DNA of 64,000 nt from a bacterium (GCA_021836035.1 JAKBJL010000001.1:138142-202141); one strand, 5' to 3'. Shown: positions 13,253 through 40,706, numbered from the stretch's first letter. Numbers and translations are program-made. The notes: generated from the sequence alone by a model not told the origin.

Positions 13253-14113
13253 ATGCGGCGGTTGTTAATTTGTTCTTTATTTCTCGTCCTTAGCGGTTAC
13301 ATTATTAATTTAGCCAAAAATGATCATGTAGCATTAGCGGCAGAAAACCCCGGCCAATTCCGTTGTCTCTGGTACACATCCGGTTCGAGCTATTGTGGCA
13401 CGGACATAAACGGAAATTCCTGTCAGTCGGGATATAGTGAAGTTCCCCAAATTTGTCTGGAAATAAAAAACCCCTCGGAATGTGACTCCGCTTCCTTTGG
13501 TTGTGTAGAAAAAGCCGGACCCCGGTATAGTTGTAAAAAGAATCAGGGGTGTGTACAGGACCCAAACGGTTACGATAGTTTGACTTCTTGCCAAAATACC
13601 TGTAAAGAACTCGGGGCTGTTAAATGTCCTGAAGGGTGTACCACATATGGCTTGGGTAGCGTCTGCTATGCAGAACCATTAGATATACTTCTTCCGAAAC
13701 CCTGCGAGAGCACTCTCTGTATCCCCTCGGCCGGAGATAAATACACTCAGTATTACTATGATCAAAAAAGTAAGTTTTGTTACTCCGTCAGGCGTGATTT
13801 GAGTCCGGTTTTTCTTTGCGTCGAAGACGGTAGTTGCCAAACCGCTATCGGCACAATATTCGCCAGCCCCGAGGATTTGGTTAAAGTCATTATGCAACTA
13901 GTGATAGGGTTGGTCGGGGGCGTTGCGCTTCTAGTGCTAATTTTAACCGGTTATCAGCTAATGACCTCCTCCGGTGATCCGCAAAAATTAGCGGTTGCTA
14001 AAGAACTAATTGTTTCCGTTATAACCGGTATTCTCATGATCGTTTTTTCCATGGTATTATTACAGGCAATCGGAGTGGATATCTTAAAAATTCCCGCGCT
14101 GGTCGCGCCCTAA
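13253..14113 (+). CDS. Secreted Cys-rich protein with a C-terminal two-helix VirB2/TrbC-like pilin module
   Basis: Signal peptide and about 26 Cys, then GLVGGVALLVLILTGYQLMTSSGDPQKLAVAKELIVSVITGILMIV. This C-terminus is paralogous to the three downstream small proteins. Confidence 0.5.
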   Translation: MRRLLICSLFLVLSGYIINLAKNDHVALAAENPGQFRCLWYTSGSSYCGTDINGNSCQSGYSEVPQICLEIKNPSECDSASFGCVEKAGPRYSCKKNQGCVQDPNGYDSLTSCQNTCKELGAVKCPEGCTTYGLGSVCYAEPLDILLPKPCESTLCIPSAGDKYTQYYYDQKSKFCYSVRRDLSPVFLCVEDGSCQTAIGTIFASPEDLVKVIMQLVIGLVGGVALLVLILTGYQLMTSSGDPQKLAVAKELIVSVITGILMIVFSMVLLQAIGVDILKIPALVAP

Positions 14114-14114
14114 A

Positions 14115-14465
14115 ATGAGATTCCCGGGTTTTAGAACCATCGAGCTGCCCAACGGCTTCCCTACCGGAGGCTTGAGTATTATTGCTACGATCATCGTCAA
14201 TTTAGTATTGCTAGCCCTGATTATTATCTTTATTCTCGCCTTTTCTTACCTGGTTATCGGCGGTCTTAAGTGGATTGCCTCCGGCGGCGACAAACAAGCC
14301 CTTGCTTCCGCCCGGTCTGCTATTACTTATGCTGTACTTGGACTTGTACTTGCGCTGGTTTCTTTTGCCATAATTAACTTTGTCTCCTGCTTTTTTGGCA
14401 TTTATCTTGGTTTAGGAGGTGGCTGTTGGTCTACTGCCCAAATTACCCATGGGCTTACTCCATAA
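14115..14465 (+). CDS. Small two-helix membrane protein, VirB2/TrbC-like pilin candidate (paralog 2)
   Basis: A hydrophobic helix, a loop (IGGLKWIASGGDKQALASARSAI), a second helix, and a GLTP terminus. Starts 1 nt after the upstream stop. Confidence 0.5.
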   Translation: MRFPGFRTIELPNGFPTGGLSIIATIIVNLVLLALIIIFILAFSYLVIGGLKWIASGGDKQALASARSAITYAVLGLVLALVSFAIINFVSCFFGIYLGLGGGCWSTAQITHGLTP

Positions 14466-14485
14466 AACTATTATTAGTCACTTCT

Positions 14486-14518
14486 TGACAGCCTCCGAAA
14501 ATCATGCCATATTAAATA
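14486..14518 (+). promoter_or_regulatory. Candidate sigma70-like promoter for the third pilin-like gene
   Basis: TTGACA at 14486-14491 and an extended TATTAAAT -10 element about 17-19 nt downstream. A GAAGGGGG ribosome-binding site sits ahead of the ATG at 14575. Confidence 0.3.
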
Positions 14519-14574
14519 TAGACGAGAAGCAGGGTCCAGTTATGCTACAACCATAAGTGGCGAAGGGGGTGAAT

Positions 14575-15003
14575 ATGAGAGATTTAAGAAAATTAATTAC
14601 TACCGCTACAATATTAGCCAGCGGCTTATATTTTGCTGCGCCCGTTTTTGCCCAAAATATAAATCTTTGCCCCACTAACGGTGGTAACCTATGCTCGCTC
14701 ACGATCCCTGCGGTTATTACCGGTCTTATCCAATTTGTTTTAATAGTCGCTTTCCTTCTGGCCTTTGCCTTTCTAGTCATGGGAGGCATTAGGTGGATTT
14801 TAAGCGGTGGCGATAAAGCAGGAACGGAAGCGGCCAAGGGGACTATCACTGCGGCTCTTATCGGCCTAATTGTTGTCCTGGTTGCTTGGGCTATTCTCAA
14901 TTTGGTTAAAACTTTCTTTGGCATTAATTTTGATCTCGGTTCATTGGCCATACCAACCATAACCAATCCGGCAACAAATCCTAACCACGGAATAACCCCA
15001 TAG
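14575..15003 (+). CDS. VirB2/TrbC-like pilin candidate (paralog 3) with a cleavable signal peptide
   Basis: MRDLRKLITTATILASGLYFAAPVFA signal, then FLVMGGIRWILSGGDKAGTEAAKGTITAALIGLIVVLVAWAI. Start moved to the ATG that has a ribosome-binding site; the listed ORF starts at an upstream GTG. Confidence 0.5.
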   Translation: MRDLRKLITTATILASGLYFAAPVFAQNINLCPTNGGNLCSLTIPAVITGLIQFVLIVAFLLAFAFLVMGGIRWILSGGDKAGTEAAKGTITAALIGLIVVLVAWAILNLVKTFFGINFDLGSLAIPTITNPATNPNHGITP

Positions 15004-15015
15004 GCCCGTTCGGTA

Positions 15016-15048
15016 AAAACCCGCCCGAATATCAAAGGCGGGTTTTTG
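15016..15048 (+). terminator. Rho-independent terminator
   Basis: aaaacccgcc - cgaatatcaaag - ggcgggtttt followed by a T-rich run. It lies directly after the TAG stop at 15003. Confidence 0.6.
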
Positions 15049-15066
15049 GTGTGTTATACTAAAAAG

Positions 15067-15396
15067 GTGAACGGTTGTGATTGGAATGCATTAAAAGGTG
15101 GCGGAGGTACGGTTCCAACACTTCCCTGCCTAGCGGAGTTTTTTGTGCGGATTATCGGCGCCCTTTTTCTCTTTTTGGGAGCGGTAAGCTTGCTATTTTT
15201 ACTTTATGGTGCCGGGCGTTTCGTTATTTCTTCAGGGGATCCAAAGGCTATAGCCGGAGCCCGTAACACTATGACTTACGCTCTCCTTGGTCTTGTGCTT
15301 ATACTTATCTCCTTCGCCATTCTCCGTTTCGTCGGGGGTTTCCTGGGGCTTCCCGAAGATACCCTCTTAAACTTCAGGCTCTGGGTCGGTCCTTAA
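15067..15396 (+). CDS. VirB2/TrbC-like pilin candidate (paralog 4); start codon uncertain
   Basis: LYGAGRFVISSGDPKAIAGARNTMTYALLGLVLILISFAIL matches the paralog consensus. The listed GTG start at 15046 lies inside the upstream terminator, so a downstream start is more likely. Confidence 0.4.
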   Translation: MNGCDWNALKGGGGTVPTLPCLAEFFVRIIGALFLFLGAVSLLFLLYGAGRFVISSGDPKAIAGARNTMTYALLGLVLILISFAILRFVGGFLGLPEDTLLNFRLWVGP

Positions 15397-15442
15397 TATA
15401 TTCTCCTTGACACCTACCGCTTCCTTAGCCATAATGTAACTA

Positions 15443-17089
15443 ATGAAAAAACTGGGAACGGTCGCGATCCTGGTCCTGTCTTTTTTCTTTTTGACAGCTT
15501 CTTCTGTTTTGGCCCAAACCAACGCCCAACGAAGGACAACTTGCGTCCAGGCCTGTCCAGCCGGAAACGGGGCCGCAGCCTGTGTAGCTAATTGCTATCA
15601 ACTTTACCCCCAAAACCAGAATAATACGCCTATCGAAAACCGCGCTGCGGAAGGCCTTTGGCAGGGAACTCCTATTGATCCGACGCTCCCCCTTTATCAA
15701 AAACAGGTTGAGGAACAGCAGCAAAAAGGCGGTGCTTATGAATGGATGAGCCAGGTAACTTTTAACTATCTGGCTTTGGCGATCACTAATAAAATTGCCG
15801 GCAGCCCCGTGACCGGACCTAACGGCAACGTTACCGGTTATCGGGGGGGGGCGATTAATCTTTTTGCTTCCCTGACCGGAACAATGTATGCTAATAAGCC
15901 GGCTTCTACAGGACAATATGTCCAATATTTGGCGCAAAACGCCGGCTTTCCCAATCTTGTTCCGGTAGCTTACGCCCAAAGCGGCGGAATTGGTTTTCAA
16001 GGATTAAATCCGATCCTACAAATTTGGCAGGTGGTCCGTAATTTAGCTTACCTGGCTTTTGCCGTGATCTTTGTTATTATCGGTTTGATGATCATGCTCC
16101 GGGTGAAGATTGATCCCAAGACTGTAGTTTCCATCCAAAACGCCCTGCCGAAAATCTTTTTGTCCTTAATTTTAATTACTTTTTCCTACCCTATCGCCGG
16201 ATTTCTAATTGATTTAATGTATGTATTAATTGGCGTGATTATCAGTCTTTTTGCCGGCGCTTTCGGTTCTTTTGATGTCACGGGTTTTAGACAAAATATA
16301 CAATATAAAACCATTTTTGAGTTTGTCGGTACCAACCTTTTTATCATGCCATCTTTCCAGAGCGGAAAATCCATCAATGATATTATTGTCGCCTTAACCG
16401 GAAACATCCCCGGTGTTTCTAATCTTTTTGGTTTTGTCGGCGGGGTTATTGGCGGGCTCATAATCTCTCTTGCCATTCTTTACGCCCTTTTTAGAACCTG
16501 GTTGATGCTTCTGGGCGCTTATATCAATATTATTATCGGCGTGATCCTTTCGCCCCTGGCGATGCTTGCCGACGCTATTCCCGGCCAGAGCGGCTTTTCC
16601 GCCTGGCTTCGTTCCATGCTTTCTAATCTCTTGCAGTTCCCTCTGGTTATTACTTTGCTCCTTTTTGGCGGCGGTTTGGTTTCCATGTCTAACCAATTCC
16701 AGCCTTCTCAAAACCCGGGTGGACCTTTTGTTCCGCCACTTATCGGAGGCAGCGATCCCAATGCGATCCCCGCCCTTATCGGTATTGGTATACTACTGAT
16801 GATCCCGAAAGCGGGAGCCATGTTGCAAGAATGGTTAAAATCTCCGCCGTTTAAACACGGTATGGCCTGGGCCGAAGCAGTAGGCTGGGCTTATTCTCCG
16901 TACGCAGGGGGTCTATTAGGGCAACCAAGGGGTAGAGAGGCTGCTGCGCAAGCAGAACGCGGTGGTTTACCACGAGGAATTTGGGATCGTTTATCCCCCC
17001 TGCCCGGAGCTGCTGCCACTGCAGCTAGCGGAGCATTAGCCCGAAGAAGATCTCCCACTGGTGGTTCGCCTTCAGCTACTACACCTTAA
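15443..17089 (+). CDS. VirB6/TrbL-like polytopic membrane protein
   Basis: Signal peptide, an extracytoplasmic domain of about 180 aa, at least six TM helices and a hydrophilic C-terminal tail. Lies immediately downstream of the pilin-like paralog array. Confidence 0.5.
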   Translation: MKKLGTVAILVLSFFFLTASSVLAQTNAQRRTTCVQACPAGNGAAACVANCYQLYPQNQNNTPIENRAAEGLWQGTPIDPTLPLYQKQVEEQQQKGGAYEWMSQVTFNYLALAITNKIAGSPVTGPNGNVTGYRGGAINLFASLTGTMYANKPASTGQYVQYLAQNAGFPNLVPVAYAQSGGIGFQGLNPILQIWQVVRNLAYLAFAVIFVIIGLMIMLRVKIDPKTVVSIQNALPKIFLSLILITFSYPIAGFLIDLMYVLIGVIISLFAGAFGSFDVTGFRQNIQYKTIFEFVGTNLFIMPSFQSGKSINDIIVALTGNIPGVSNLFGFVGGVIGGLIISLAILYALFRTWLMLLGAYINIIIGVILSPLAMLADAIPGQSGFSAWLRSMLSNLLQFPLVITLLLFGGGLVSMSNQFQPSQNPGGPFVPPLIGGSDPNAIPALIGIGILLMIPKAGAMLQEWLKSPPFKHGMAWAEAVGWAYSPYAGGLLGQPRGREAAAQAERGGLPRGIWDRLSPLPGAAATAASGALARRRSPTGGSPSATTP

Positions 17090-17092
17090 ATT

Positions 17093-18958
17093 CTATTTCG
17101 GTTGAGCATACCTACCGAAATACATTTTAAGCACTTCGCTTTCGAGGACAACTGTTGAATTCCTGCTCAAAAAATTACCCTGTTTCATCGCTTGTAATAC
17201 CGCCCTTACTTGCTGATTCGTCCAATACGCCCGCTTATAAGGATTAATAGGATTATCCGGTACCGCCTCAGGAGAGCCACACCAAAAAACTCCTAGAATA
17301 TAATTGAAGCGCATTTTGTCTAAAGTAGCCTCTTGGAATTCTTTTAATGAAGCTCTTGTGTCGGGCATACCTGGCGGTACTCTTAAAAGGGTAGGGCAAA
17401 AAGCGGTAACCCGGTTAATCAGCTTATGCATAGAATCCCAATAACCCGGGTCAACCAGTTTTTTAAGATCCTGGCCTCTTTCTTTGAAGGTGCTGACAAT
17501 GGTGTTAGCAAAAGCTAAATCATAACCGAAATAGCCCGCATATTGGGTGGGTTCCAATTGCCAGAAAGGCATTTGTTTCCAAGTATAATCAGAAAGCCTC
17601 CGCGGTTGCCCAGCGTCTGCAACCTGCACTGAGCGGAAAAAGTCCCCGACTATCTCTGCCCTGGTCACATCAGCGGGGTTAAAAACAAAAACCGCCTTGG
17701 AAGTTTTATTTTTTTTCAAAATATCAATTCTCCTTTTGGCCATATCCTTCGCGCGGCCTTCCCGCGGCCAACCGCCGTAAGTGGCAATATTATCCTGTTC
17801 CGGTGCCGCCCAGTAAGCCCCGACAGTAATATCCGGTCCGGCCGGGTCGCCTTTCATAAAATCGTTGCGCCGCTTGTATTCAAAGTGCATAAGATCCCGA
17901 TCTTCACCGATGGTCGTATGTTGTTCCCTTTCTTTGTCCCACATAGACATGGTTAAATTGCAGGTTAAATAATCGCCAGCTAGTTCGGTAGCCCAGCGAG
18001 CTTGGAAACGGGTGTAATGGTCCTCGTCAACCAATTTATTCTCAATCTGTGCTTTAAAATAAGCCATATACGCGTCTGATTGAATCGCGTCTTTAAAGGA
18101 AATGGTTCCGCGATAAGGATCGGTATAGGCTTCCCCCGCCGCTTTCCATTCGTTCAAAGCGGCGCTAACAGGAATTTTTGCATCCGTGTTACTGACGAAA
18201 GGAAAAATTTCATCCAGATGGGTTATCGTCCAATGATCTTCGGGAGTAAGGTTGGTAAACTTAATCGTGGTTTGCGCTTGAACTTCCGGTGAAACCACCC
18301 CCATAACCGCCAGCGATCCTTTGGACGATTCAATTTCTACTTTGCGATTTCTGATGCGACACAAAGCCCAAAGGGTAGATTTCAATGCTTCCTGATATGG
18401 AACTTGGCGTTCATAACCGAGTCCGGCACCTCGAAACACAGTTACAAAGTTGAGTTTTAAATCTTCCGGCATCGCATCCAAGCCGTTGACTATTGAAGAT
18501 AGTTCTAAATTCTCAGAAATCCTCTCCTGAAATAGTTTACCGTTGATATTTTCGTATTGTTCAAAAACGGTGCCTAAAACCGCTTCCATCCAGCCGTCAA
18601 CACTATTCGGATCCTGCGGGCCTATTTCTAAACGATAGGGTGCCGCTACGGGGCGATTGGTAGCGGACCTGCCTGAAAAAGTCGTTCCTCCGGCAACCGG
18701 GCCCTTACCCTTTTTCATCAATTCATCGATATCGTCCAATTCCTCAGGTTTTAACTCCCCGCCGGACCCCACTATCTCACGAATATAGTTTCCCCAGGCA
18801 ATTTTAATATTAGGCAAGGTTGCCTTTTCCCGCGGGCGCGCAATTTCCTTACAAGGCGCTTCCTGTGATTTGCCCGTTTGTACTCCCGATAATATCTCAG
18901 GAGATCTGGTAGAGGCTCCTGCTTCCGGCGGCCGATATACTCCTTCTCCTTCTGCCAT
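17093..18958 (-). CDS. Hypothetical cytoplasmic protein (621 aa), no recognisable domain
   Basis: Long ORF with no signal peptide, TM helix or Walker motifs. Trp/Tyr-rich. Convergent with the VirB6-like gene. Confidence 0.5.
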   Translation of the reverse strand: MAEGEGVYRPPEAGASTRSPEILSGVQTGKSQEAPCKEIARPREKATLPNIKIAWGNYIREIVGSGGELKPEELDDIDELMKKGKGPVAGGTTFSGRSATNRPVAAPYRLEIGPQDPNSVDGWMEAVLGTVFEQYENINGKLFQERISENLELSSIVNGLDAMPEDLKLNFVTVFRGAGLGYERQVPYQEALKSTLWALCRIRNRKVEIESSKGSLAVMGVVSPEVQAQTTIKFTNLTPEDHWTITHLDEIFPFVSNTDAKIPVSAALNEWKAAGEAYTDPYRGTISFKDAIQSDAYMAYFKAQIENKLVDEDHYTRFQARWATELAGDYLTCNLTMSMWDKEREQHTTIGEDRDLMHFEYKRRNDFMKGDPAGPDITVGAYWAAPEQDNIATYGGWPREGRAKDMAKRRIDILKKNKTSKAVFVFNPADVTRAEIVGDFFRSVQVADAGQPRRLSDYTWKQMPFWQLEPTQYAGYFGYDLAFANTIVSTFKERGQDLKKLVDPGYWDSMHKLINRVTAFCPTLLRVPPGMPDTRASLKEFQEATLDKMRFNYILGVFWCGSPEAVPDNPINPYKRAYWTNQQVRAVLQAMKQGNFLSRNSTVVLESEVLKMYFGRYAQPK

Positions 18959-19013
18959 AAGCTGATTTTATCATACTTTTCCTCAATTTAGGAAAATATG
19001 GTATAAAATAGCC

Positions 19014-19580: not shown

Positions 19581-20019
19581 ATTAATTCCAAATAATAAAG
19601 CTGATAAAATTAATAAAGGGGGTTTAATCATCACGGGGGAGAATCGTCAGCTACAAAAAAGAATTGAAATTTTGCTGTTAATTATATAAATCCGGCTAAT
19701 AAACTTCCCCATATCATTTCTATTCTTAAAATTGGGCCCCGGTTAATTGCTGCGACTGGAAGTATTGGGGCAAAGTATCAGGGGGCTTATATGGCGGGAA
19801 GCTCTATAGATTTTGTTCGTAAAATAAAAATTTCGGAGAAAGAAGGAAGCAGGCCAGGTCGCGGGTTAAGATTTCTCTATCGCGCAAATTCCGCCCTAAA
19901 GAAAAATATCGAAGATTTAGGAAAGGAGTCGGGGGAAATTGTCAAAATGTTTTCAACTATTCTCTATTAATTTAAATGCCCCGACAACCGGTTTGTTAAC
20001 CTTATTATTTTTATTAATT

Positions 20020-20712
20020 TTATTTCTCTCCGGACTTTTCTTCGTTAGGAGATTCCGGCTTCGGGGTTGCTTCTGCTACCGTTTCCCCCGCGGCTTCTTC
20101 CGCAGCTTTTGCCGCTTCCGCGGCGGCTGCGGCCTCCGCTTCTTTCTTGGCTTCTTCGGAAACTGCCGGAGCAACACGGACAACAATTTCTTCCGCCGGA
20201 GTAAGAACGGACACCCCCTTAGGGATTGTCAAACCCCCAACCGTGATCTGTTGATCAACCTCCGTAAGTTTACCGGCATCGATCACGATTCTCTCCGGCA
20301 AATCCGTTGGTAAAGCTTCAACTTCCACCTCGTTTAGGGTTTGGAGTAACAATCCAATCCCGGCAGTAACCGCCGGCGAGTTGTTTTCCAAGATCAAGGG
20401 TACGTTGGCCCGCAGCTTCTCGGTTAAGGAAACGGCGTGAAATTCCGCATGCAGGGGGTAACGCGTTACTGGATGTACCTGGAGCCCGCTGATCAAGGTG
20501 TGGTGGGTCTTCCCGTCTACCAATAGTTCTACCAATCCCGTTTCTCCGGCTTGACTGTATACGATTAAAAAATCCTTAACCGGCAGTTCTAAAGCCACGG
20601 ACTTTAATCCCTTACCGAAAAGATTAGCCGGCAGTAAGCCGGACTTTCTTAAATTTTTAACCTTCTTTCCGACGGTTTTCCGCACCCCGGCTTTTAAAAC
20701 TGTTTTTTCCAT
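20020..20712 (-). CDS. rplY: 50S ribosomal protein L25 / general stress protein Ctc
   Basis: An L25/Ctc-like body (KAGVRKTVGKKVKNLRKSGLLPANLFGKG...) followed by an acidic, Ala-rich tail. Confidence 0.75.
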   Translation of the reverse strand: MEKTVLKAGVRKTVGKKVKNLRKSGLLPANLFGKGLKSVALELPVKDFLIVYSQAGETGLVELLVDGKTHHTLISGLQVHPVTRYPLHAEFHAVSLTEKLRANVPLILENNSPAVTAGIGLLLQTLNEVEVEALPTDLPERIVIDAGKLTEVDQQITVGGLTIPKGVSVLTPAEEIVVRVAPAVSEEAKKEAEAAAAAEAAKAAEEAAGETVAEATPKPESPNEEKSGEK

Positions 20713-23741: not shown

Positions 23742-23771
23742 GGTTATTCAATTTTAAGATAGGCTCTTGTC

Positions 23772-24209: not shown

Positions 24210-24315
24210 AATAATCTCGTACTGTGCTTGTTTCCCGTGAGGTAATTATATTTTCTTCACGGGAAAATAATTCTTTTAGATTATACTGTTGGCCTGTACA
24301 AAATCGTGCCCGGGT

Positions 24316-29087: not shown

Positions 29088-29096
29088 TGTGGATAA
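29088..29096 (-). promoter_or_regulatory. Consensus DnaA box in the dnaA promoter region
   Basis: tgtggataa, the reverse complement of TTATCCACA, lies 19 nt upstream of the dnaA start. Confidence 0.55.
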
Positions 29097-30503: not shown

Positions 30504-30761
30504 CTTACCCAAACTGTCCACAAACTGCCGGGAATTATCCACAAAGATATCAACAAGAAAAGTTCAATTATCAACAGAGATAATCTTAAGCTTAAAGCTA
30601 ATAGTTAATGGCTAATAGGTTAATAGATGACAAGAACAAAATAAAATGCATTTATCAACATTATAAATCAGACTGGCCAGGCTGGGCTGCCCACAAATAC
30701 ACAAAGACTACTAACAAACAAATACTAATTGTAAATAGGAAAGGGGGCGGCTAAGATTACA
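30504..30761 (+). promoter_or_regulatory. Candidate oriC: a DnaA-box cluster plus an AT-rich unwinding region in the dnaA-dnaN spacer
   Basis: Perfect TTATCCACA at 30537-30545. Box variants TGTCCACAA (30516-30524), TTATCAACA (30569-30577 and 30652-30660) and ATATCAACA. An AT-rich tract at 30585-30670. Confidence 0.6.
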
Positions 30762-31901: not shown

Positions 31902-33729
31902 CCTCTTTTTCCCTTTGTTTTTTAGCGGCGATGAGCTCCTCGGGCTTACTGGTGATGAGTTCGTGTTCTTCGGGGGAGGCGACCACCTGTATGGCGACAT
32001 GCGAGGAGCCGGCAAAGAAAAGGCCTTGGCCGACATTGGCTGAAAGCAGAAGGCTTTTTTCTCCCTCGGAAAGATAAAATATCTGCGCCACTTTATCAAT
32101 CGCCGCCGGTGACTGTTTCATCAGCATTTGAATACTGCTGTTGGTAACAATGGTTTTACCCAGGTCGGTGGCGAGGAAATCTTCGATGTCCTGGGTAATC
32201 GTCGTTAGCCCCAGGTAATATTTGCGGGCGCGTTTAGCAAAACCCCATAAAAATTCGGCGCTGTTCTGGTTTTTCATTAAATACCAGCCTTCATCGACGA
32301 TTAAAATCCGCCTTTTCATTTTCCTTTTTATCTGGCTCCAGACATAATCCATAATGATAAAAATTGCCAAGCTGCGCATTTGATCCTCCAGGTTTTTAAA
32401 GGAGAATACGGTAAAAGAATTATTGAGATTCACGGTCGAGCGCTGGTTAAAGACGCCGCCGAAACTGCCTTTGACAAATTTTTCCAGGCGCAAAGCCAGA
32501 TTTTGGGCTATTTGCGTTTCCATCCCGATCAGTGTCCGATAAAGGTCTTCGAGAAGCGGCGGTTCGTTTCTGTGGGTAGCCGGATCATAGGTGATCCCTT
32601 TTTGTTTATAAGTCAGCTCCAGGGCGTTGTGCAAAATAGCATCTTCTTCGGCGGATTTTGTTTCGACCATAATTTTAAGAAGCCGCGCCAGGGTAAAACC
32701 GATTTTTAGCTGCAGTTCGTTCTCTGCTTCTTCACCGGAGCCGGATAAATCGAAAGGGTTGATATGGGTATCGCTGCCGAAAGCAAAGGAAATATAATCG
32801 CCGCCCACAGAATCGGACAGGCTTTTATATTCCTCTTCCGGATCGACAATAATCACATCCGTACCGAACATCAGAGAACGCAAAGCTTCTAATTTGACTA
32901 AAAAACTTTTTCCGCTGCCGCTTTTTCCTAAAACTACTTCATTGGCGTTTTCTAAAGAAAAACGGTCAAAGATAATCAGCGATCCGTTATGTTCGTTGAG
33001 GCCGTATAAAATTCCAGAATTAGCGGTTAGTTCCGAAGAGGTAAAAGGAAAGGTGGTAGCGAGCGACGTGGTATCCATATTGCGGGTGATCATCAGTTTG
33101 TCCAGACAAGTAGGAGAAGTAGTTTTAAAACCGTCCTCCATCTGGAGGGTCGCCGGCTTGCTGATAATCAAAAGCGCTCCTAGGGTGGAGGAGACCTCTT
33201 TAGTTAACTGGTTTAACTGTTCGATGCTGTCGCTGCTGATAGTGACATAAAGCCCGAATTGGTAAAACTTTTCCGCACCTTTGGCCAGTTGTTCCTGAAG
33301 ATTTAACGCGTCATCAAGAGCTACCTGGACATTGGGGTCAATTACTTTGCCGCGCTTGATATCGCTTTCAATGGTTGCTTCCATTTCTGCAATTTTCCGT
33401 TTCATATCGGAGAGGATCTCCTTGGACTCAACGGGATAAATAAAGATGGAAACGTCCAGACTGCTGTTGAAATTAATAAGCGGCGCCAGCCAATTGGCGC
33501 TGACAAACCGCGGGTAGCCGGCGACAAAAAGGGTGCGGTAAAATTTTTCCCCGATTTTTAAATAATCAAAATCAACTTCGATGGCGGCCGGGGCGATGAT
33601 ATCCTGGACGGTAACCATCCCGGCAGCCAGGGATTTGTCAGGGCCTTCCGGTACGCTTTCGGGCTGGAAGCGCTTTACCAGAGGGATGTTAATTTTGGGC
33701 AGTTTAACCATAAGAGAATCTTTAATCAT
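31876..33729 (-). CDS. VirB4/TrbE/CagE-family T4SS ATPase (C-terminal two thirds)
   Basis: CagE/TrbE/VirB4 signature IIAPAAIEVDFDYLKIGEKFYRTLFVAGYPRFV. Walker A GKSGSGKS. Walker B RRILIVDEGW. RKYYLGLTTITQ. Confidence 0.75.
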   Translation of the reverse strand: MIKDSLMVKLPKINIPLVKRFQPESVPEGPDKSLAAGMVTVQDIIAPAAIEVDFDYLKIGEKFYRTLFVAGYPRFVSANWLAPLINFNSSLDVSIFIYPVESKEILSDMKRKIAEMEATIESDIKRGKVIDPNVQVALDDALNLQEQLAKGAEKFYQFGLYVTISSDSIEQLNQLTKEVSSTLGALLIISKPATLQMEDGFKTTSPTCLDKLMITRNMDTTSLATTFPFTSSELTANSGILYGLNEHNGSLIIFDRFSLENANEVVLGKSGSGKSFLVKLEALRSLMFGTDVIIVDPEEEYKSLSDSVGGDYISFAFGSDTHINPFDLSGSGEEAENELQLKIGFTLARLLKIMVETKSAEEDAILHNALELTYKQKGITYDPATHRNEPPLLEDLYRTLIGMETQIAQNLALRLEKFVKGSFGGVFNQRSTVNLNNSFTVFSFKNLEDQMRSLAIFIIMDYVWSQIKRKMKRRILIVDEGWYLMKNQNSAEFLWGFAKRARKYYLGLTTITQDIEDFLATDLGKTIVTNSSIQMLMKQSPAAIDKVAQIFYLSEGEKSLLLSANVGQGLFFAGSSHVAIQVVASPEEHELITSKPEELIAAKKQREKEASSAPEQA

Positions 33730-33759
33730 TATTATATATGAAGAAGGGAACCTTGAGAA

Positions 33760-34437
33760 TTACTGGGTTGAGATTGCCGGAGAAGTGTAAGGGACGCTGC
33801 CGACCAGCTCTGTTCCTTCGGCGCCGGGATTATAAATAGTGTAAAAAAGCTCGATCAATTCCTGGGTGTTAAGCTGCCGGGCGCGCAGTCCCAGGCGCCC
33901 GAGCTGTCGGTAGATATGTTCTGCCTTAGGGGCTAAAGCGACCTTGGCCTTTTCGATGATCGTTTCTACCGGCAAAGGCAAGCCGGTTTGTTTAATCAAA
34001 AGCTTTGCCGAGCTGGAAACCCCCAATTCCAGGGAGCTGAAAGGGATGCAAATGTAGAATTTTTTGTCCAGGACGTTGTTTTCTTTGACTGTTTTGACGA
34101 TAAAATCACGGTATTTGGCAATCTGGTTTTTAAGAAGGGCGTTCTGTTGTTCATCCTCTGCTTTCTGAAGCTGGGATACGTAGGAGGAAATATCTTTACG
34201 TTTACTCCTGATGACGATCTGAATGGGGAAAGTGAGTGAATTTAAAAGGCCGGCATAAGCGTAAATAATTGCGTCCTGTTCCATTTCGGACAAAAGGCCG
34301 AAGTTGACGGCGGTAGTCTGGATGGTCAGGGTAACGGAACCGTCTTTAAGAATGATTAAATTATCCCGGATATCATAGATTTCCAGGTGTTCCTGAGTAG
34401 CCCCGCGGATAGCAACTTTACTAAGGTCGACGGGCAT
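33760..34437 (-). CDS. VirB4 N-terminal-domain-like protein, encoded separately 30 nt upstream of the ATPase ORF
   Basis: Soluble 225 aa protein (DIRDNLIILKDGSVTLTIQTTAVNFGLLSEMEQDAIIYAYAGLL), resembling VirB4/TraC N-terminal regions. The gap to the next ORF contains a stop codon and a possible AAGG ribosome-binding site. Confidence 0.45.
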   Translation of the reverse strand: MPVDLSKVAIRGATQEHLEIYDIRDNLIILKDGSVTLTIQTTAVNFGLLSEMEQDAIIYAYAGLLNSLTFPIQIVIRSKRKDISSYVSQLQKAEDEQQNALLKNQIAKYRDFIVKTVKENNVLDKKFYICIPFSSLELGVSSSAKLLIKQTGLPLPVETIIEKAKVALAPKAEHIYRQLGRLGLRARQLNTQELIELFYTIYNPGAEGTELVGSVPYTSPAISTQ

Positions 34438-34476
34438 TGGTAACAGTATGCCATAAGTTTATGCTATCATCAAGCC

Positions 34477-35205
34477 GTGTTGGGACTTTTCTTTGCCCTG
34501 CTAACTTTTATTTCCACCTTAAGCGGCGGTTGGGCGGCCATCCGTTTTCGCGACCGGCTCCATTTGGTTTTGGGTTTTGCTTCCGGGGCAGTAATAGCCA
34601 CGGCCCTATTTGAAATTCTGCCGGAGGTTATTAGCGAAGCGCAAAAAATGCTCCTGCCCCTCAATAATCTCCTGTTTTTCAGCGCTGTCGGTTTTTTATT
34701 TTTCCATTCTTTAGAGAGAATTATTGTCTTTCGCTCGGGAAATCATTCGGAGGAAGGCGGTAACCGCCACGTCGGTACTTTATCGGCAACCGGTTTTTCC
34801 GTACATTCTTTTTTTGACGGGCTGGGCATCGGTTTAGGCTTTTTAACCAGCATTCAGTTGGGATTGGTTATTTCCCTGGCGGTTCTGGCTCACGATTTTT
34901 CCGACGGCCTCAATACAGCTACGGTGATATTAAAAAATCAGGGGAAAAAGTCCCAGGCTTGGCGTTGGCTTTTAATTGATGCGCTGGCCCCGCTTTTGGG
35001 GCTGGCGGTGTCTTTTTATTTCAACGGTCTTACCGCGATCCTGCCGTACATTTTGGCATTCTACTTCGGCTTTTTTCTTTATCTGGGCGCGGCTGATCTT
35101 TTACCCGAAGCCCACCATCGTCATAGCTCTTATCTGACACTGTTTACTACCGTTTTGGGATTTGCCGCGGTTTTTATTATCTCCGCCCTGCTCCGCGGTT
35201 TATAA
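34477..35205 (+). CDS. ZIP-family divalent metal transporter (ZupT-like)
   Basis: Eight TM helices and a histidine-rich loop. AVLAHDFSDGLNTA resembles the ZIP signature helix. Confidence 0.65.
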   Translation: MLGLFFALLTFISTLSGGWAAIRFRDRLHLVLGFASGAVIATALFEILPEVISEAQKMLLPLNNLLFFSAVGFLFFHSLERIIVFRSGNHSEEGGNRHVGTLSATGFSVHSFFDGLGIGLGFLTSIQLGLVISLAVLAHDFSDGLNTATVILKNQGKKSQAWRWLLIDALAPLLGLAVSFYFNGLTAILPYILAFYFGFFLYLGAADLLPEAHHRHSSYLTLFTTVLGFAAVFIISALLRGL

Positions 35206-35229
35206 TAAGGGTTGTCGGAGGCGAGAAAG

Positions 35230-35385
35230 ATGACGGGTTATGGCCGCACCTACGGAATGATGAGCGGATTCGGCGGACCCGTATCTTATTGGGAATTTCT
35301 TTTAGAAACGATTACCTGGCTTTTGGTGATTGCCGCGCTAACCGCTTGCGTTCGCTATTTCTGGAAAAAGGGCAATGGAAAATAA
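35230..35385 (+). CDS. Small (51 aa) Gly-rich membrane protein; its 3' end overlaps the mpg start
   Basis: MTGYGRTYGMMSGFGGPVSYWEFLLETITWLLVIAALTACVRYFWKKGNGK. The ORF is too short for the track. Confidence 0.3.
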   Translation: MTGYGRTYGMMSGFGGPVSYWEFLLETITWLLVIAALTACVRYFWKKGNGK

Positions 35386-35938
35386 TGCTCCATTACCGCG
35401 CCGTTTCTTCGCCCGGTCGGCGGAAATCGTGGCCCGGGAACTTTTAGGAAATTATTTAATCCGTGAGGAAGAGGGGAAATGCCTGATTGTCAAAATTGTA
35501 GAAACGGAAGGATATTTAGGTCCGCAGGACTTAGCCGCGCATAGCCGCTTCGGAGAAACGCAAAGAAACCGGGTGATGTTTGGCCCGCCGGGATTTGCTT
35601 ACGTTTATTTAATTTACGGCATGTACTATTGCCTTAATGTAGTTACGGAAAAAGAGGGAATAGGGGCAGCGGTATTGCTAAGGGCTGCGGAGCCGGTAAA
35701 AAACGTGGCCGAAAAAACATCCGGCCCCGGCTTGCTCTGTAAAGCATTACATATTAATAAATCTTTATACGGGACGGATATGGCGAAATTCGGGCCTTTG
35801 TATTTTGTTTTGGGGAAGAACGTCCCCGAAGAACAAATTGCCGCGGCTCCGCGTGTCGGAGCGGCTTATGCCGGGATCTGGGCGGAGGAAAAATTGCGCT
35901 TTTACCTTAAAAACAATCCTTTTGTGTCGAGAAGATAG
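35375..35938 (+). CDS. mpg: DNA-3-methyladenine glycosylase (MPG/AAG family)
   Basis: PRRFFARSAEIVARELLG...GRIVETEAY-type N-terminus. MFGPPGFAYVYLIYGMYYCLNVV core. Confidence 0.8.
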   Translation: MENNAPLPRRFFARSAEIVARELLGNYLIREEEGKCLIVKIVETEGYLGPQDLAAHSRFGETQRNRVMFGPPGFAYVYLIYGMYYCLNVVTEKEGIGAAVLLRAAEPVKNVAEKTSGPGLLCKALHINKSLYGTDMAKFGPLYFVLGKNVPEEQIAAAPRVGAAYAGIWAEEKLRFYLKNNPFVSRR

Positions 35939-35953
35939 GAATCGGTAAAATTG

Positions 35954-37171
35954 TTAAGCCGCAGCCGATTGCTTTTCCTGAAGGCCTTCGGTTTGACTGC
36001 CGTCTGCTTCCGCGCTTTCCTTGGCCTCAATTTCTAACGGGGTAACGACATTGCCGTCTAATTTAATTTCTAAAATGTCGAAATGATAACCCTCTTTATC
36101 CATTTCCAAATAATAAGTGCCGCTTTCCAGCGGGGTGCTGGCTAAAAACTGGCCGACTTTATTAGTCCGCAGGGCCCGGACGCTAGTTCCCTGGATGTTT
36201 TTAATAATAACGATAACCCCGGGAAGAATTTGGTCCTGGGCATCTTTAACTACCCCGGAAATCAGGTTGGGAGTGGTAATTTGGAAAATGCCGGCGTAGG
36301 CCGGCTTGGGCGGTTTCTTTTCCGTTTTGGGCTGGGCGGGCTTGGCGTAAGGCGAATATCTTTTGGGGAAGGTCAGGTTTGCCGCTTTAATTTCCGTTGC
36401 CTCCTTGATTGTCGACTGCGGCAGCTTGGCTTGCTCCCGGATTTTTACCATCTCGTCGATGGTAATTGTCGCCTTTGGGGCCGTCTCTTTTGGTGCTTCT
36501 TGAACCCGCGCCTGTACCTGTTCTTCTAGCGGGGGTATTTTTTCCTCCGGCGACGGCTCTTCCGACGGGACTTTCGCGTTTTGATCACCGGAAAATTCCT
36601 TTAACAAATCTTCGCGGATGCGGATGAGGTCCTCGATGCCCATCTGTCGTTTTTCGTTGGGTTTTTCTTCAGGCGGGGGCAGGGGATTTAGCGCTACCTG
36701 CGGAGCCTCTTCCGCCGCCGCTTCTTCCGGTTCGGTCTGGGGCAGGGTTTGCAGATACTCCTGCAGGCGGGTGTCAGTAGGCGCCGAAGCCGCGGCTTGC
36801 TCTAAAGACACCGGCGGGGCTAAAGGTTCTTCGGTGGTCTCGGGAATATTCCAGACTCCCGCCTGTTTGCGCCCGCTTTTTTTCCAAAGATAAAGTGTCG
36901 GGCGGTAGATAGAGCGGAAGAAATTGATGACCCAGATGTCCAGCGGCCGCTCATTGACCGGGACAAAGGCAAAAGTGACCCCGGAAACAATAAAAAGGAT
37001 TGCCAGGGGGAATTTGATAATAGCATACCAATCGGAAGCATAGAAGATAAAAGCGGTAATAAATCCGGCCGCCAGGTAGCCGAATTGTTTCAGGGTCATA
37101 TCGCCGACCAGCTTAAACTCAAAACCGGTAATGTTCTGAGGGACAGGATGCTGCTCCATGGCAAATTTCAT
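35954..37171 (-). CDS. PrgI/VirB3-like two-TM N-terminal module fused to a Pro/Glu-rich linker and a C-terminal CarboxypepD_reg-like beta-sandwich domain
   Basis: N-terminus FKLVGDMTLKQFGYLAAGFI...FVPVNERPLDIWVINFFRSIYRPTLYLW resembles PrgI-family (VirB3-like) proteins of Gram-positive T4SS. C-terminus VKDAQDQILPGVIVIIKNIQG...GTYYLEMDKEGY. Confidence 0.4.
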   Translation of the reverse strand: MKFAMEQHPVPQNITGFEFKLVGDMTLKQFGYLAAGFITAFIFYASDWYAIIKFPLAILFIVSGVTFAFVPVNERPLDIWVINFFRSIYRPTLYLWKKSGRKQAGVWNIPETTEEPLAPPVSLEQAAASAPTDTRLQEYLQTLPQTEPEEAAAEEAPQVALNPLPPPEEKPNEKRQMGIEDLIRIREDLLKEFSGDQNAKVPSEEPSPEEKIPPLEEQVQARVQEAPKETAPKATITIDEMVKIREQAKLPQSTIKEATEIKAANLTFPKRYSPYAKPAQPKTEKKPPKPAYAGIFQITTPNLISGVVKDAQDQILPGVIVIIKNIQGTSVRALRTNKVGQFLASTPLESGTYYLEMDKEGYHFDILEIKLDGNVVTPLEIEAKESAEADGSQTEGLQEKQSAAA

Positions 37172-37443
37172 TGTAAAGGCAAAACGATGAAAAACAAGAG
37201 GGTCACCTTTTCATAGAAAGACTAATTAGGATTTGATACGCACCTGGGCTACCCGGCCGCTGGATTTTAAAATATCACCCTTCTTTACAAAATAACACTA
37301 TTCCTATCTGTTCCGGAAACCTTGCCATTTCTTCCGGCGGCGACTTCCACCCTGTTTCTAAAAAAGATAGAATTGCAAAGCTTTTTTCCTACCCTACCTG
37401 AATATCCTCAATTTTTCGAAATGCCGGGCTATCCAATTCCTTC

Positions 37444-37668
37444 TTATACGCAGATGGTTCTGAGAGAACCAAAATAGATTAATTTTCCCCCCGGCTTGAT
37501 TGCCCTGGCGGTTTTCGCTTCTGCTTTCCTTTGCGATTCTTTGTCCGCGAGCATATGACTACAACCAAAATCTGAAGCCGTGTCAAGGTGTTTGTCGGGA
37601 AAGGGTAATTTTGTGATGTCCGCTTGAAGACATACCGGTTTTACTCCGAGCCCTTCGGCTTTTTACCT
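37444..37668 (-). pseudogene. Remnant of a class I SAM-dependent methyltransferase gene
   Basis: Minus-strand translation reads LQADITKLPFPDKHLDTASDFGCSHMLADKESQRKAEAKTARAIKPGGKLIYFG (motifs II-III and post-II of a Methyltransf_11 fold). No start codon and no N-terminal half. Confidence 0.5.
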
Positions 37669-37697
37669 AGCTTCAACAACTTCTTCCTCGTGAATAT

Positions 37698-37961
37698 TTA
37701 TCGTACTTCTGGTCTTTTGCGGGCCAGCCGATTAGCAATCCTGCCGAAACCGCCACCGGTATCTGGAACCCTATCGCCGGTTTTTAATAATCCGCCCCAA
37801 TAGCTTTTTATAATTATCCCTGTCGGTTCGTTTCCTAGCCAGGCGATATTTGCGGGAGCAGCCACTATTTGGTTCCAGGTTGCACCCCCGTTATTATCCG
37901 GGGAATTAAGGCGGGTAGAGATGTGACCGCTCGCAACAAATACTACCGGGCGGATACCCAG
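37698..37961 (-). pseudogene. Remnant of a BNR (Asp-box) repeat protein gene
   Basis: An 87-codon open frame with no start codon reads ...RLNSPDNNGGATWNQIVAAPANIAWLGNEPTGIIIKSYWGGLL..., and SPDNNGGATW fits the SxDxGxTW Asp-box. Bounded upstream by an in-frame stop. Confidence 0.4.
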
Positions 37962-38003
37962 TTAGTAATAATCGGATTATTGATCTTATGGTAAGATGAA
38001 TTT

Positions 38004-40706
38004 ATGGCCCAGACGAAAGCGGATACACCGATCGTTTCTGTTCCGGCAGGAAACGGTCCTGTTTTTAAGATTTCCGAATTGCAAAAATTGCGGGCACGCC
38101 GTCACGGTCCGGCGAAAAATAGATTAGCCGAAGCGCTCCGCCGGTCTATTTTAACTTACAACAAAAATCTTTTCCGGCGTCTGGCTTTAGCTCCCGGCGA
38201 CGAAAATGTGCAGACAGTGGTGGACAACTATATCGATGACGTTACGGATAATGTGGCCCAGGAACTGGCAAACGGCCGGGGACTGGAAGAAACGGTAGCG
38301 GAAACCCTGCGGGAGAATATTACGGAAGAAGAAAATATTTCCTGGGAGCCGCAGGCGGTTGCGGAAACGGCCAAGGAAGTAGCCGAAGTTGTCGACCCGG
38401 CGACAATTGCAGAGACTATTGCCGAGGAAAGAGCCCAGGAGCAAACACAGGAGGAAGAACAAGTTCCAGCACAAGGGCAAGCGGAGGGGGAAAAAGAAAA
38501 CATTCCGCCCTTAATCTTTCGGGGCTATACGCCGCCGACCAGCCAGAGACAGGAGGCCCGGACTGCGGCACCGAAAGAAGCACCTATTCACTATACCCCG
38601 GGGGTAGGTACCGGAGCCGGTGAGAAAAAACTGACGAAAGCCCGGGAGGAGATCAAAAGCCTACGGGAACGTTACGAGAAAGAGGAGCCCTCCCTTTTAC
38701 AGTCGCCGGGTCGGAGTTTGGGGCGGATCGCCGGCAGATTTGGGATTCAACTGGGACGCCGTGGACAGGTTGTTTCTCCAGAGCCGGAAGAAGGGTTTTT
38801 ACCCGGAGTACCTATGGCTCCGGTTTCTGCAGCAGCGGCAGGGAAGGAAGCCGGAAGACCCGGAACCCTTCCCGCGAAAATGCCGGATATCCAACCGGCG
38901 CAAACGGAAACAGCCCGCGAGAAAACGGCGGCAAAAGTGGCAAAAATCCAAGCCCGGCGCGAAGCCATGCTCCGCCCGGAAACCCAGGAAGCTTTGGGCG
39001 AACCGGAAGGTATCTACGGGGCTGTCCCGGGGGAACGGCCCCGAACGGCTCAGGAATTTATCCGCCAAACCCACCGCGAAAGCCCTGAGGAAATCAGGAT
39101 ACGGGCCCCGGGACCTGCCGGCTGGCTAAGCAGTATCAAAGACCGGATTTTTACCAGCCTGGGGTTGGGAAAGAAAAAAACCGCGGAAAAAGTCGCCGGT
39201 ACGGTAACGGCAGCCGCTAAGATCGCCGCCGGTAAAGAAGCACTGGCCGGGACGGGGAAAATTTTAATTTCGGCAGCGGCTAAGAAATTTGCCGGAACTG
39301 CATTGGGGACAATTCTGGGGGGACCGGTAGGGGCTGCTCTGGCCTGGGGGATCACGCTGGTAGCCGATAGACTATGGCCCGAAATTAAAAAACTATTAAA
39401 GGTTTTGGGCGGAGCGGCCGGTGCGGCATTTATGATGCTTATGACCCTTCTGGCCAAAGCCGGTTTGGCCGGTTGGGTTGCAGGCGGAGCCTTAACAGGA
39501 GCCTTAATTGGTAGTTTTATTCCTGGTGTCGGGACCATCGGCGGTTTTATCATCGGTGGTTTTGTCGGCGGGGTAGCGGGATATATTTCCCAGATGGTGG
39601 CGGCTACTAGCGCTGCCGGGGCGGGAGCAGGAGGGGTTGCGGCAACGGCGGCGACGGCTATCAGCGGTACCGTTCCTTCCCTGATGGGAATTGCGACCGG
39701 CTTAGGGGGAACGGGTCTTTTGGGAACTGCCGCCGTTTCTATTACTACGGGCCTGTCGGCAACTTTTCTTACCGCTACGATGCTTTTGGGCCTGCGCGAT
39801 GCGGTTTATCAGGATCCGGTTTATAACGCTCAGGTCGGAGCTGATATCGCCGCGCCGGTCGGGGTTTATGTAAAGAAGGTTGGTTCACCGGATACGGTAG
39901 CAAATGATCAGATCGGCAAAACGGAAATTGCCTATCTAGCCGATGTCGTTCAGGCCAGGCAAATTAAAAGCGCGACCGTCAAAGACGAAATTATTATTAA
40001 TAAAAAGGGAACTCCCGGCACCCCGATCGTTATTTTCGGTCCGCAACCATACCAGCAGGGCAAAATGTACGATTATAAAATGCCTCTGACTCCCCAAATG
40101 CAGGATTCGTTGGTAATTAATAAATTCACCATTGAAGGAACTATGGTTAATTCTGTCGGAAAGGAAGAACAGTTTACCGCCTCCGCTTCTTTCCCGATCA
40201 AAGTCGGTACGCCGTCTATGGAAGTTTTTTCCTGCCCGGTAATTAGCGGCCGGCTGTGCGAACACTCCTTAAGTAATGGTTCACCGGCTCATTGCGACAC
40301 CAATTATCGGAGCAATCCGGAACTAGATCGGATTTGCCCGGGAGGAACGAATTATTGGCAGGGCAACGAAACGGCTATTGATGTTTGTTCCACCCAGGGC
40401 GCGCCTGTTTATTTACCCTCAATTGACGGGCAGGCGGTTAATTGGCATTATGAACATGACGGCAATGATAATAATTACCCCGGCCAAAAGTACCGCCAAT
40501 TTTCGGCGACGGTTAACGGCGTTCCCTATGTTTTACAATTGCACCACATGATTAATGAGCAGGTAACCGCCAGCACTCTGGCTTCCGGGACAGTGGTAGG
40601 ACACTTGGCAGCATTTCCCGGCGGCAATACGCCGCATTCCCATATTCAGATCAAACGTAACGGCACTTTTATCTCCGCCGAAGAAGTTTTTAAAGGCTGC
40701 CTGTAA
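38004..40706 (+). CDS. Large membrane protein: acidic cytoplasmic N-terminal region, a Gly/Ala-rich multi-helix membrane region, and a C-terminal M23 (LytM-type) peptidase domain
   Basis: C-terminal NWHYEHDGND (HxxxD-like) ... LQLHHMINEQV ... PHSHIQIKRNG (HxH) matches M23 metallopeptidase motifs. A central run of glycine-zipper helices (GGPVGAALAWGITL..., GGFIIGGFVGGVAGYI). Confidence 0.55.
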   Translation: MAQTKADTPIVSVPAGNGPVFKISELQKLRARRHGPAKNRLAEALRRSILTYNKNLFRRLALAPGDENVQTVVDNYIDDVTDNVAQELANGRGLEETVAETLRENITEEENISWEPQAVAETAKEVAEVVDPATIAETIAEERAQEQTQEEEQVPAQGQAEGEKENIPPLIFRGYTPPTSQRQEARTAAPKEAPIHYTPGVGTGAGEKKLTKAREEIKSLRERYEKEEPSLLQSPGRSLGRIAGRFGIQLGRRGQVVSPEPEEGFLPGVPMAPVSAAAAGKEAGRPGTLPAKMPDIQPAQTETAREKTAAKVAKIQARREAMLRPETQEALGEPEGIYGAVPGERPRTAQEFIRQTHRESPEEIRIRAPGPAGWLSSIKDRIFTSLGLGKKKTAEKVAGTVTAAAKIAAGKEALAGTGKILISAAAKKFAGTALGTILGGPVGAALAWGITLVADRLWPEIKKLLKVLGGAAGAAFMMLMTLLAKAGLAGWVAGGALTGALIGSFIPGVGTIGGFIIGGFVGGVAGYISQMVAATSAAGAGAGGVAATAATAISGTVPSLMGIATGLGGTGLLGTAAVSITTGLSATFLTATMLLGLRDAVYQDPVYNAQVGADIAAPVGVYVKKVGSPDTVANDQIGKTEIAYLADVVQARQIKSATVKDEIIINKKGTPGTPIVIFGPQPYQQGKMYDYKMPLTPQMQDSLVINKFTIEGTMVNSVGKEEQFTASASFPIKVGTPSMEVFSCPVISGRLCEHSLSNGSPAHCDTNYRSNPELDRICPGGTNYWQGNETAIDVCSTQGAPVYLPSIDGQAVNWHYEHDGNDNNYPGQKYRQFSATVNGVPYVLQLHHMINEQVTASTLASGTVVGHLAAFPGGNTPHSHIQIKRNGTFISAEEVFKGCL

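Follow-up and report, generated by a model that had tools for sequence, protein, structure and literature searches.

Why would a bacterial chromosome carry the parts of a type IV secretion system (T4SS) dispersed around its replication origin, with neither a coupling protein nor a relaxase among them? This question is raised by a 64,000-nt stretch of bacterial DNA (GCA_021836035.1, JAKBJL010000001.1:138142-202141; hereafter 'the window'), in which genes for VirB2-like pilins, a VirB6-like protein, a VirB4 ATPase, a PrgI/VirB3-like protein and a putative wall hydrolase are spread over positions 13,253 to 40,706. An earlier reading made from the sequence alone (the sequence-only reading) had proposed a chromosomally fixed, non-conjugative apparatus. 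We put the probability at roughly 85% that the locus is a chromosomal, relaxase-less T4SS set of the kind found in Patescibacteria (candidate phyla radiation bacteria), located beside the replication origin and representing a Microgenomates-type copy. With similarly high confidence, we regard the system as a vertically inherited chromosomal T4SS derived from monoderm (MPF-FATA) conjugation machinery. The gene map and all statements of absence below refer to the 64-kb window. For comparison, the window proteins were mapped by a tblastn survey onto 80 Microgenomates-type genome loci surrounding VirB4 relatives of 54-83% identity, which are cited by L-numbers where one must be singled out.

The VirB4, TrsD and PrgI proteins

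The VirB4 ATPase core (617 aa; 31876-33729, minus strand) carries the Walker A motif GKSGSGKS, matches PF19044 (E 3.9e-33) and scores 394 bits against the NCBIfam model conju_CD1110 (cutoff 325), with an alignment that covers profile positions 183-734 of 752. Directly upstream is a TrsD-like gene (225 aa; 33760-34437, minus strand; NCBIfam TrsD/TraD, E 2.8e-6) that stops 30 nt before the virB4 start, and its product aligns to CD1110 positions 13-119, the N-terminal part that is absent from the 617-aa open reading frame (ORF). The TrsD-like ORF is thus the equivalent of the VirB4 N-terminal domain on a separate ORF, and the two ORFs combined amount to one VirB4. TrsD and VirB4 are encoded by neighbouring but separate ORFs in 71 of 75 related loci, and therefore VirB4 is not a broken gene; we rejected the idea of a frameshifted pseudogene on the same grounds. 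Thus, the earlier description of VirB4 as two ORFs holds as far as the presence of both parts is concerned, whereas the split is a conserved arrangement rather than a break. At its 3′ end, virB4 is overlapped over 26 nt by the convergent dnaN gene.

The PrgI/VirB3-like membrane protein (405 aa; 35954-37171, minus strand) scores above the PF12666 cutoff (E 1.4e-6, 29.2 bits; cutoff 27), and its C-terminus forms a CarboxypepD_reg beta-sandwich (PF13620, E 1e-7), an architecture that recurs in L004. The PrgI gene directly adjoins that of TrsD in 65 of 67 loci. The window is one of the two exceptions, with genes for a ZIP metal transporter and a 3-methyladenine DNA glycosylase (34477-35938) placed between them. 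On the other side, 832 bp (37172-38003) separate the PrgI gene from the divergent gene for a 900-aa protein, and this interval holds no ORF of at least 80 aa and no Rfam match.

The pilin array

Four tandem genes on the plus strand encode the VirB2-like pilins. Pilin 1 (286 aa; 13253-14113; PF18895 T4SS_pilin, E 1.1e-7 over aa 213-273) is composed of a signal peptide, a Cys-rich N-terminal domain of ~190 aa and a C-terminal VirB2-like hairpin. It is followed by pilin 2 (116 aa; 14115-14465; PF18895 E 1.8e-6, family hidden Markov model (HMM) E 1.2e-29), pilin 3 (148 aa; 14557-15003; PF18895 E 2.3e-8) and pilin 4 (116 aa; 15046-15396; family HMM E 2.8e-29). Pilins 1-3 exceed the Pfam gathering score for PF18895 and pilin 4 falls under it (20.4 versus 26.6 bits), but with the family HMM all four score between E 8e-21 and 5e-37, in agreement with the number of copies originally counted, and the model finds no fifth pilin-like ORF in the window. 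A 177-aa antisense ORF (14502-15035, minus strand) was rejected as a gene because it overlaps pilin 3, which has both Pfam and orthologue support. This spurious ORF is longer than the real pilin 3 gene and misleads greedy ORF callers. Scans for promoters and terminators across 13.0-19.7 kb yielded no excess over shuffled controls.

Pilins of the array share 30-42% identity with one another. When the array (13253-15396) is compared with those of L003 (7816-9954), L004 (17161-19159) and L065 (5623-7367), each begins with a long Cys-rich gene and continues with three short ones. Pilin 1 finds its best matches in the first genes of these three arrays (94-95 bits) rather than in its own neighbours (41 bits), and same-position orthologues also beat the neighbours at positions 3 and 4, where pilin 3 resembles the third-position and pilin 4 the last-position pilins of relatives. 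The four genes are ordered, ancient paralogues with positional orthologues across genomes. Because each is closer to its counterpart elsewhere than to the adjacent genes, the pattern favours different structural functions for the four pilins (as major, minor or tip subunits) over recent antigenic variation.

The VirB6-like protein

A divergent VirB6/TrbL-like polytopic membrane protein (548 aa; 15443-17089, plus strand) is encoded after the pilins. It yields no Pfam match to PF04610 (VirB6/TrbL) even at E<=1, and a PDB sequence search with the profile of this protein was empty or uninformative. The family is nevertheless large (274 matches in a homologue search), and PF04610 is matched by just two of 45 homologues (best E 1.3e-7). 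The protein has a polytopic helical fold that resembles solved VirB6-class subunits, and it resides in a T4SS gene neighbourhood; on these two grounds, the VirB6-like protein proposed by the sequence-only reading is present despite the failure of the PF04610 profile. The family provides VirB6-like candidates in Microgenomatia, for which a recent survey describes VirB6 as 'scarce' (PMC12102498).

A divergent M23-fold protein

The remaining component is a 900-aa membrane protein (38004-40706, plus strand) with a charged N-terminal region, Gly/Ala-rich transmembrane segments and a C-terminal M23/LytM-fold domain. Sequence searches of Pfam, NCBIfam and PDB with this protein returned nothing, and the C-terminal domain alone gave no match at E<=10 to Pfam, including PF01551. 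A word-indexed homologue search found only the protein itself when the whole sequence was used, and nothing for the C-terminal 303 aa. An index-free search, by comparison, uncovered 62 relatives of the C-terminal domain, nine of which carry Pfam M23 somewhere in the protein. The resulting domain profile aligns weakly onto Pfam-confirmed M23 domains (E 1.1e-6 and 5e-5, in a small local database), and its weak matches in PDB (best E 0.0063) are almost all M23/LytM proteins. An AlphaFold2 model of the last 169 aa has a predicted local distance difference test score (pLDDT) of 93.3, and its 38 best Foldseek matches in PDB are all M23/LytM structures (probability 1.00, E down to 1.9e-5). The last 169 aa therefore have the M23/LytM fold, and the earlier claim of an M23 hydrolase is upheld at the level of modelled structure where sequence profiles were negative.

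Invariant positions in the 62 relatives are, in order, Cys, His, Cys, Asp, Pro, Trp, His, HxH and Cys. The domain shares with LytM, lysostaphin, Csd1/2 and ShyA the fold, an HxH motif (which reads PHSHIQI), the conserved Asp and an upstream His. It differs in lying below the detection range of PF01551, in having three invariant Cys residues, which suggest disulfides, and in the loss of the canonical HxxxD spacing: Glu occupies position -4, and the invariant His, part of a 'GHC' motif, precedes the invariant Asp by ~30 residues. Since this spacing is not kept, catalytic competence is no more than likely.

In 39 loci, a large gene (600-1300 aa) is located directly downstream of virB4, and the domains borne by members of this group are M23, CHAP or amidase. 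The HMM made from these 39 relatives matches the 900-aa protein over aa 59-884 (E 4.7e-17), and for this reason we consider the latter a displaced orthologue of the gene downstream of virB4. It is likely to be the wall-breaching component that fills the VirB1 role.

Location beside the replication origin

The location near the origin that was noted from sequence is supported by dnaA (29115-30503), dnaN (30762-31901), a cluster of DnaA boxes and a turn in GC skew. The cluster (30409-30660), which spans the 3′ end of dnaA and the dnaA-dnaN spacer, contains eight matches to TTATCCACA with at most one mismatch and is likely oriC; it is context for the T4SS genes and not a part of the machine. A perfect box is present at 29088, the window as a whole holds 24 box matches where 11.3 are expected, and the cumulative GC skew reaches its minimum at ~22-24 kb.

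None of the Pfam-scanned window ORFs carries a VirD4/FtsK-like, relaxase or integrase domain, and apart from a few chance matches, a six-frame scan for Walker A motifs recovered only LepA, DnaA, VirB4 and a partial UvrD/PcrA helicase. The absence of VirD4, relaxase and integrase genes reported by the sequence-only reading is accordingly borne out, but for the 64-kb window only. No tRNA gene flanks the set (the sole tRNA gene of the window is at 60855-60943; the check for boundaries did not extend to direct repeats). In GC content, the T4SS genes (0.455-0.538) range to either side of the window mean of 0.481.

Conservation of the locus in related genomes

The closest VirB4 relatives with a meaningful taxon name come from Patescibacteria/Microgenomates metagenome-assembled genomes (MAGs), in a comparison by sequence identity (54-83%). 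Homologues of the 548-aa protein and of the ATPase likewise derive from MAGs of the Microgenomates group (Shapiro-, Curtiss-, Levy-, Woyke-, Davies- and Dojkabacteria), which places the lineage as Microgenomatia-like and not Saccharibacteria. An identical copy of the 548-aa protein occurs in GCA_027371575.1 (contig DAHXMT010000002.1), where the gene order is the same. No exact match to the 617-aa VirB4 was retrieved, probably owing to a different start in the recorded gene. Many of the closest VirB4 loci (L005, L007, L008 and others) are from MAGs titled 'uncultured Gammaproteobacteria' or 'Pseudomonadales'. These titles look like submission placeholders or errors, given that gene content and synteny are plainly of the Patescibacteria/Microgenomates type.

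Comparative synteny, which had been recommended as a check, reveals conserved linkage of virB4 with the genes for TrsD and PrgI and with dnaN and dnaA. Among the 80 loci, TrsD accompanies virB4 in 73-75, PrgI in 68-69, dnaN in 60-61, dnaA in 56-57, and yidC and jag in 45-49. The usual arrangement in relatives is a compact block, PrgI-TrsD-VirB4-(large wall hydrolase), next to dnaN/dnaA, and ~20-26 loci have the pilin array and the virB6-like gene no more than 10 kb upstream of virB4. In L004, for example, four pilin genes, PrgI, TrsD and VirB4 are contiguous and in that order. The closest relatives (L005-L007) have yet other arrangements around dnaA/dnaN, and in CAZNUP010000001.1 the virB6-like block is ~100 kb from virB4 (L003 versus L012). 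Because the PrgI-TrsD-VirB4-hydrolase genes form a compact block by dnaN/dnaA in related loci, the scattering seen in the window is secondary: ancestrally, the genes made up a single compact cluster beside the origin, and rearrangements around the latter have produced the three-piece layout. Therefore, although the components are indeed interleaved with core genes and do not form a mobile island, as first described, the interleaving is a local rearrangement and not a defining property of the system.

Taken together, VirB4 proteins that are 54-83% identical in 80 genomes, conserved synteny, unremarkable GC content and the lack of an integrase support the proposal that the system is chromosomally fixed and vertically inherited.

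Other neighbours recur near virB4 in relatives, including an AAA+Trans_reg_C regulator, PLD, Nramp, RecF-like and ABC proteins and several proteins of unknown function. HMMs of these clusters found no member in the window, and neither VirD4 nor a relaxase is among the clusters. The regulator, a fusion of an AAA/NACHT-like ATPase with Trans_reg_C encoded ~4 kb upstream of virB4 (a 12-locus cluster; for example, L004:14921-16234 and L028:5247-6554), may control the T4SS cluster in those genomes, and is without counterpart in the window.

Comparison with known systems

The closest precedents are the T4SSs of Patescibacteria themselves. Wang et al. 2023 (Cell; PMC10633639) report that epibiotic growth of a Saccharibacterium requires a T4SS cluster (SEML1_0006-0019), including its pilins, in which neither coupling nor relaxase proteins could be recognised. 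In a survey of 3,035 Patescibacteria genomes, Quinonero-Coronel et al. 2025 (Microb Genom; PMC12102498) describe most VirB4 proteins as a monophyletic clade nested in MPF-FATA, with TrsD as the most frequent partner. PrgI/VirB3 and VirB6 are reported there as well, together with arrays of 2-11 PF18895 pilin genes, which are particularly frequent in Microgenomatia and Saccharimonadia, and dnaA, dnaN and rnpA are said to be often near T4SS genes in Paceibacteria and Microgenomatia. A 2025 review treats the Patescibacteria systems as a recognised T4SS type (PMC12857230), and a 2026 preprint describes tube-like structures, possibly T4SS pili, at the parasite-host interface (bioRxiv 10.64898/2026.06.21.733656).

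The window shares with these systems (PMC10633639, PMC12102498) a chromosomal VirB4 of MPF-FATA type, a separate TrsD-like ORF, PrgI/VirB3, VirB6, PF18895 pilins, an associated peptidase, the lack of a nearby relaxase or type IV coupling protein (T4CP), and a site by dnaA/dnaN/rnpA. It differs in that the cluster is in three pieces, with the ZIP and glycosylase genes between PrgI and TrsD, and in having a VirB6-like family that the published HMMs mostly miss in Microgenomatia. In addition, PrgI is next to virB4 in most loci of our sample versus a 22.6% association in the survey (PMC12102498), a discrepancy that is probably due to profile sensitivity. The likening to Saccharibacteria made by the sequence-only reading is apt only in part: a T4SS is essential in one Saccharibacteria species (PMC10633639), but the lineage represented here is of the Microgenomates type.

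Every element of the original finding and of its interpretation has already been described, and the locus is real but not new. The window offers a clean Microgenomates-type example rather than a new kind of system, and the survey of relatives fills gaps in annotation: the VirB6-like family, the near-constant adjacency of PrgI, TrsD and VirB4, the divergent M23-fold orthologue of the gene downstream of virB4, and the ordered pilins. To our knowledge, no T4SS other than that of Patescibacteria has been shown to be essential for the growth of its own bearer.

More distant are the MPF-FATA conjugative T4SSs (pCF10 Prg/Pcf, pGO1 Trs, pIP501 and CTn2/CD1110), which have in common with the window a CD1110-family VirB4, pGO1-type TrsD, PrgI, a polytopic protein of the VirB6 class and a large wall hydrolase, anchored in the membrane, that takes the part of PrgK/TraG. 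However, those systems are borne by plasmids or integrative and conjugative elements, are equipped with a relaxase, T4CP, oriT and surface adhesins, and have no VirB2 pilins, whereas the window genes are chromosomal at the origin, include four pilins and have no relaxase or T4CP in the locus. Helicobacter pylori ComB and archaeal Ced also employ VirB4-class ATPases without relaxase or T4CP, for import and not export, and might be functional analogues. The window genes belong to neither family. Their matches reach 49.4 bits for CedB (cutoff 700) and 18.6 for CedD (cutoff 600), which reflects generic VirB4/HerA-class similarity, and ComB is a diderm VirB2-VirB10 set.

Function and alternative explanations

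The system is probably non-conjugative. It may serve host interaction or uptake. Import of host macromolecules is the role we tentatively place first, although export of effectors is nearly as plausible; a function in adhesion only is doubtful, and conjugation with distant or unidentified partners is more doubtful still. With respect to uptake of DNA, competence of S. epibionticum depends on ComEC and type IV pili and not on the T4SS, according to the review (PMC12857230).

A working model can be proposed in which the M23-fold domain of the 900-aa protein would open the wall locally, as do the PrgK/TraG-type hydrolases in T4SSs of Gram-positive bacteria. PrgI/VirB3, the VirB6-like protein and TrsD+VirB4 would constitute a membrane platform, with PrgI/VirB3 as an anchor that bears an external beta-sandwich. 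VirB4 might then power the extraction of pilins and their polymerisation into a short pilus or tube directed toward the host cell.

Several points weigh against this overall interpretation. No VirB8/TcpC-like component was identified, and folds of this kind were not searched by structure. The VirB6-like, M23 and pilin 4 assignments lean on transitive or structural similarity and not on curated thresholds. Essentiality has been demonstrated in one Saccharibacteria species only. Finally, VirD4-like T4CP homologues are present in 2,918 Patescibacteria genomes, mostly far from virB4, as stated in the survey (PMC12102498), and hence the statement that the system has no coupling protein should be confined to the window.

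This last point also speaks for the least improbable alternative, namely that the genes form a functional conjugation system, with a coupling protein and a relaxase that are encoded at another genomic site or have diverged beyond recognition. VirB4 does belong to a conjugative family (CD1110 type), our search was confined to 64 kb, and the minus-strand gene running off the start of the window (1-1938) encodes a partial helicase of the UvrD/PcrA type. This helicase (motifs AGAGSGKT and DEYQDTN) does not represent a relaxase, and its gene seems to be a core one. We nonetheless consider active conjugation improbable. The complete conjugative element that would have overturned the original proposal is missing from the surroundings, with no relaxase, T4CP or integrase anywhere in the window, and neither of the first two is encoded by the conserved neighbours in the 80 loci. 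Relaxases were found in only 103 of ~3,035 Patescibacteria genomes, and the T4CP homologue of S. epibionticum is non-essential in contrast to the T4SS genes, both as reported in the survey (PMC12102498). Tight vertical synteny with dnaA/dnaN is also unlike a mobile element.

A less probable explanation, and one to which we give little credence, is that two unrelated systems are present, such that the block of pilins and VirB6-like protein would be a separate surface-filament locus with no functional tie to VirB4 and PrgI. In the window, the two blocks are indeed separated by 15 kb and flank the origin, and the separation grows to ~100 kb in CAZNUP010000001.1. However, the pilin array directly precedes PrgI-TrsD-VirB4 in L004, L065, L078, L080, L082 and others, the virB6-like gene is within 10 kb of virB4 in ~23-26 loci, VirB2 and VirB6 are T4SS-specific families, and pilins are essential parts of the Saccharibacteria cluster (PMC10633639).

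Least probable of all is that the genes are decaying, non-functional remnants of an integrated conjugative element that was broken up, for although they are spread over 27 kb among core genes with an apparently split VirB4 and no relaxase or T4CP, all ORFs are intact, the TrsD/VirB4 split (71/75) and Walker A motif are preserved, VirB4 is 54-83% identical across the whole class, the catalytic-type residues of the M23 domain do not vary among 62 relatives, each of the four pilin paralogues keeps its position, and there is no compositional anomaly.

A hypervariable convergent gene

Convergent with the virB6-like gene is that of a 621-aa soluble protein of unknown function (17093-18958, minus strand), which putatively belongs to the system and has no match in Pfam, NCBIfam or PDB. 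An opposite-strand gene for a protein of 587-1357 aa comes after the virB6-like gene, at a distance of 3-150 nt, in 24 of 26 loci (for example, L003:11575-13680, L004:11634-14381 and L035:1765-5202), so that position, size and orientation are conserved although the sequence is hypervariable. Nearly all of these proteins are devoid of transmembrane segments and none has a known domain. The 24 neighbours fall into 16 BLAST clusters that jackhmmer does not link, BLASTP and jackhmmer searches started from the 621-aa protein and three positional counterparts reveal no link between them, and Pfam returned nothing for ten positional counterparts. A short 'GPVAGG'/'PISGG' motif is common to just three of the genes. 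No mention of a large convergent gene was found in the accessible parts of the T4SS papers.

The gene may encode a structurally conserved but fast-evolving component, or variable cargo. That it specifies a fast-evolving, lineage-specific T4SS substrate or a host-specificity factor is unlikely on present evidence, but if true, it would be the first candidate cargo for a Patescibacteria T4SS and would favour export over import. The hypervariable gene offers a tangible starting point in the search for a cargo or a specificity factor.

Neighbouring genes

A type IV pilus and surface block (4.4-9.3 kb) encodes PilN, PilO, a 975-aa Ig/fn3 surface protein and a 152-aa protein whose translation ends in an LPRTG sorting-type signal, in keeping with the PilN/PilO, adhesin-like and LPXTG genes listed by the sequence-only reading; murJ and lepA are placed between this block and the pilin array. 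The gene for the 621-aa protein is followed by a run of core genes (L25, an epimerase/DUF4012 fusion, RNase H, a flippase, a Wzy-like protein, jag, yidC, yidD and rnpA), and that for the 900-aa protein by genes for a 249-aa protein of unknown function and then valS. Farther downstream, smpB is directly followed by a full-length transfer-messenger RNA gene (62380-63204 for the pair; Rfam RF00023, 113.8 bits), which was missed by ARAGORN, whose only prediction was the tRNA-Ser gene at 60855-60943. The fusion noted above (20694-23741, minus strand) is a 1015-aa protein that joins an NAD-dependent epimerase/dehydratase to DUF4012, and its gene is also near the origin in 18-19 related loci.

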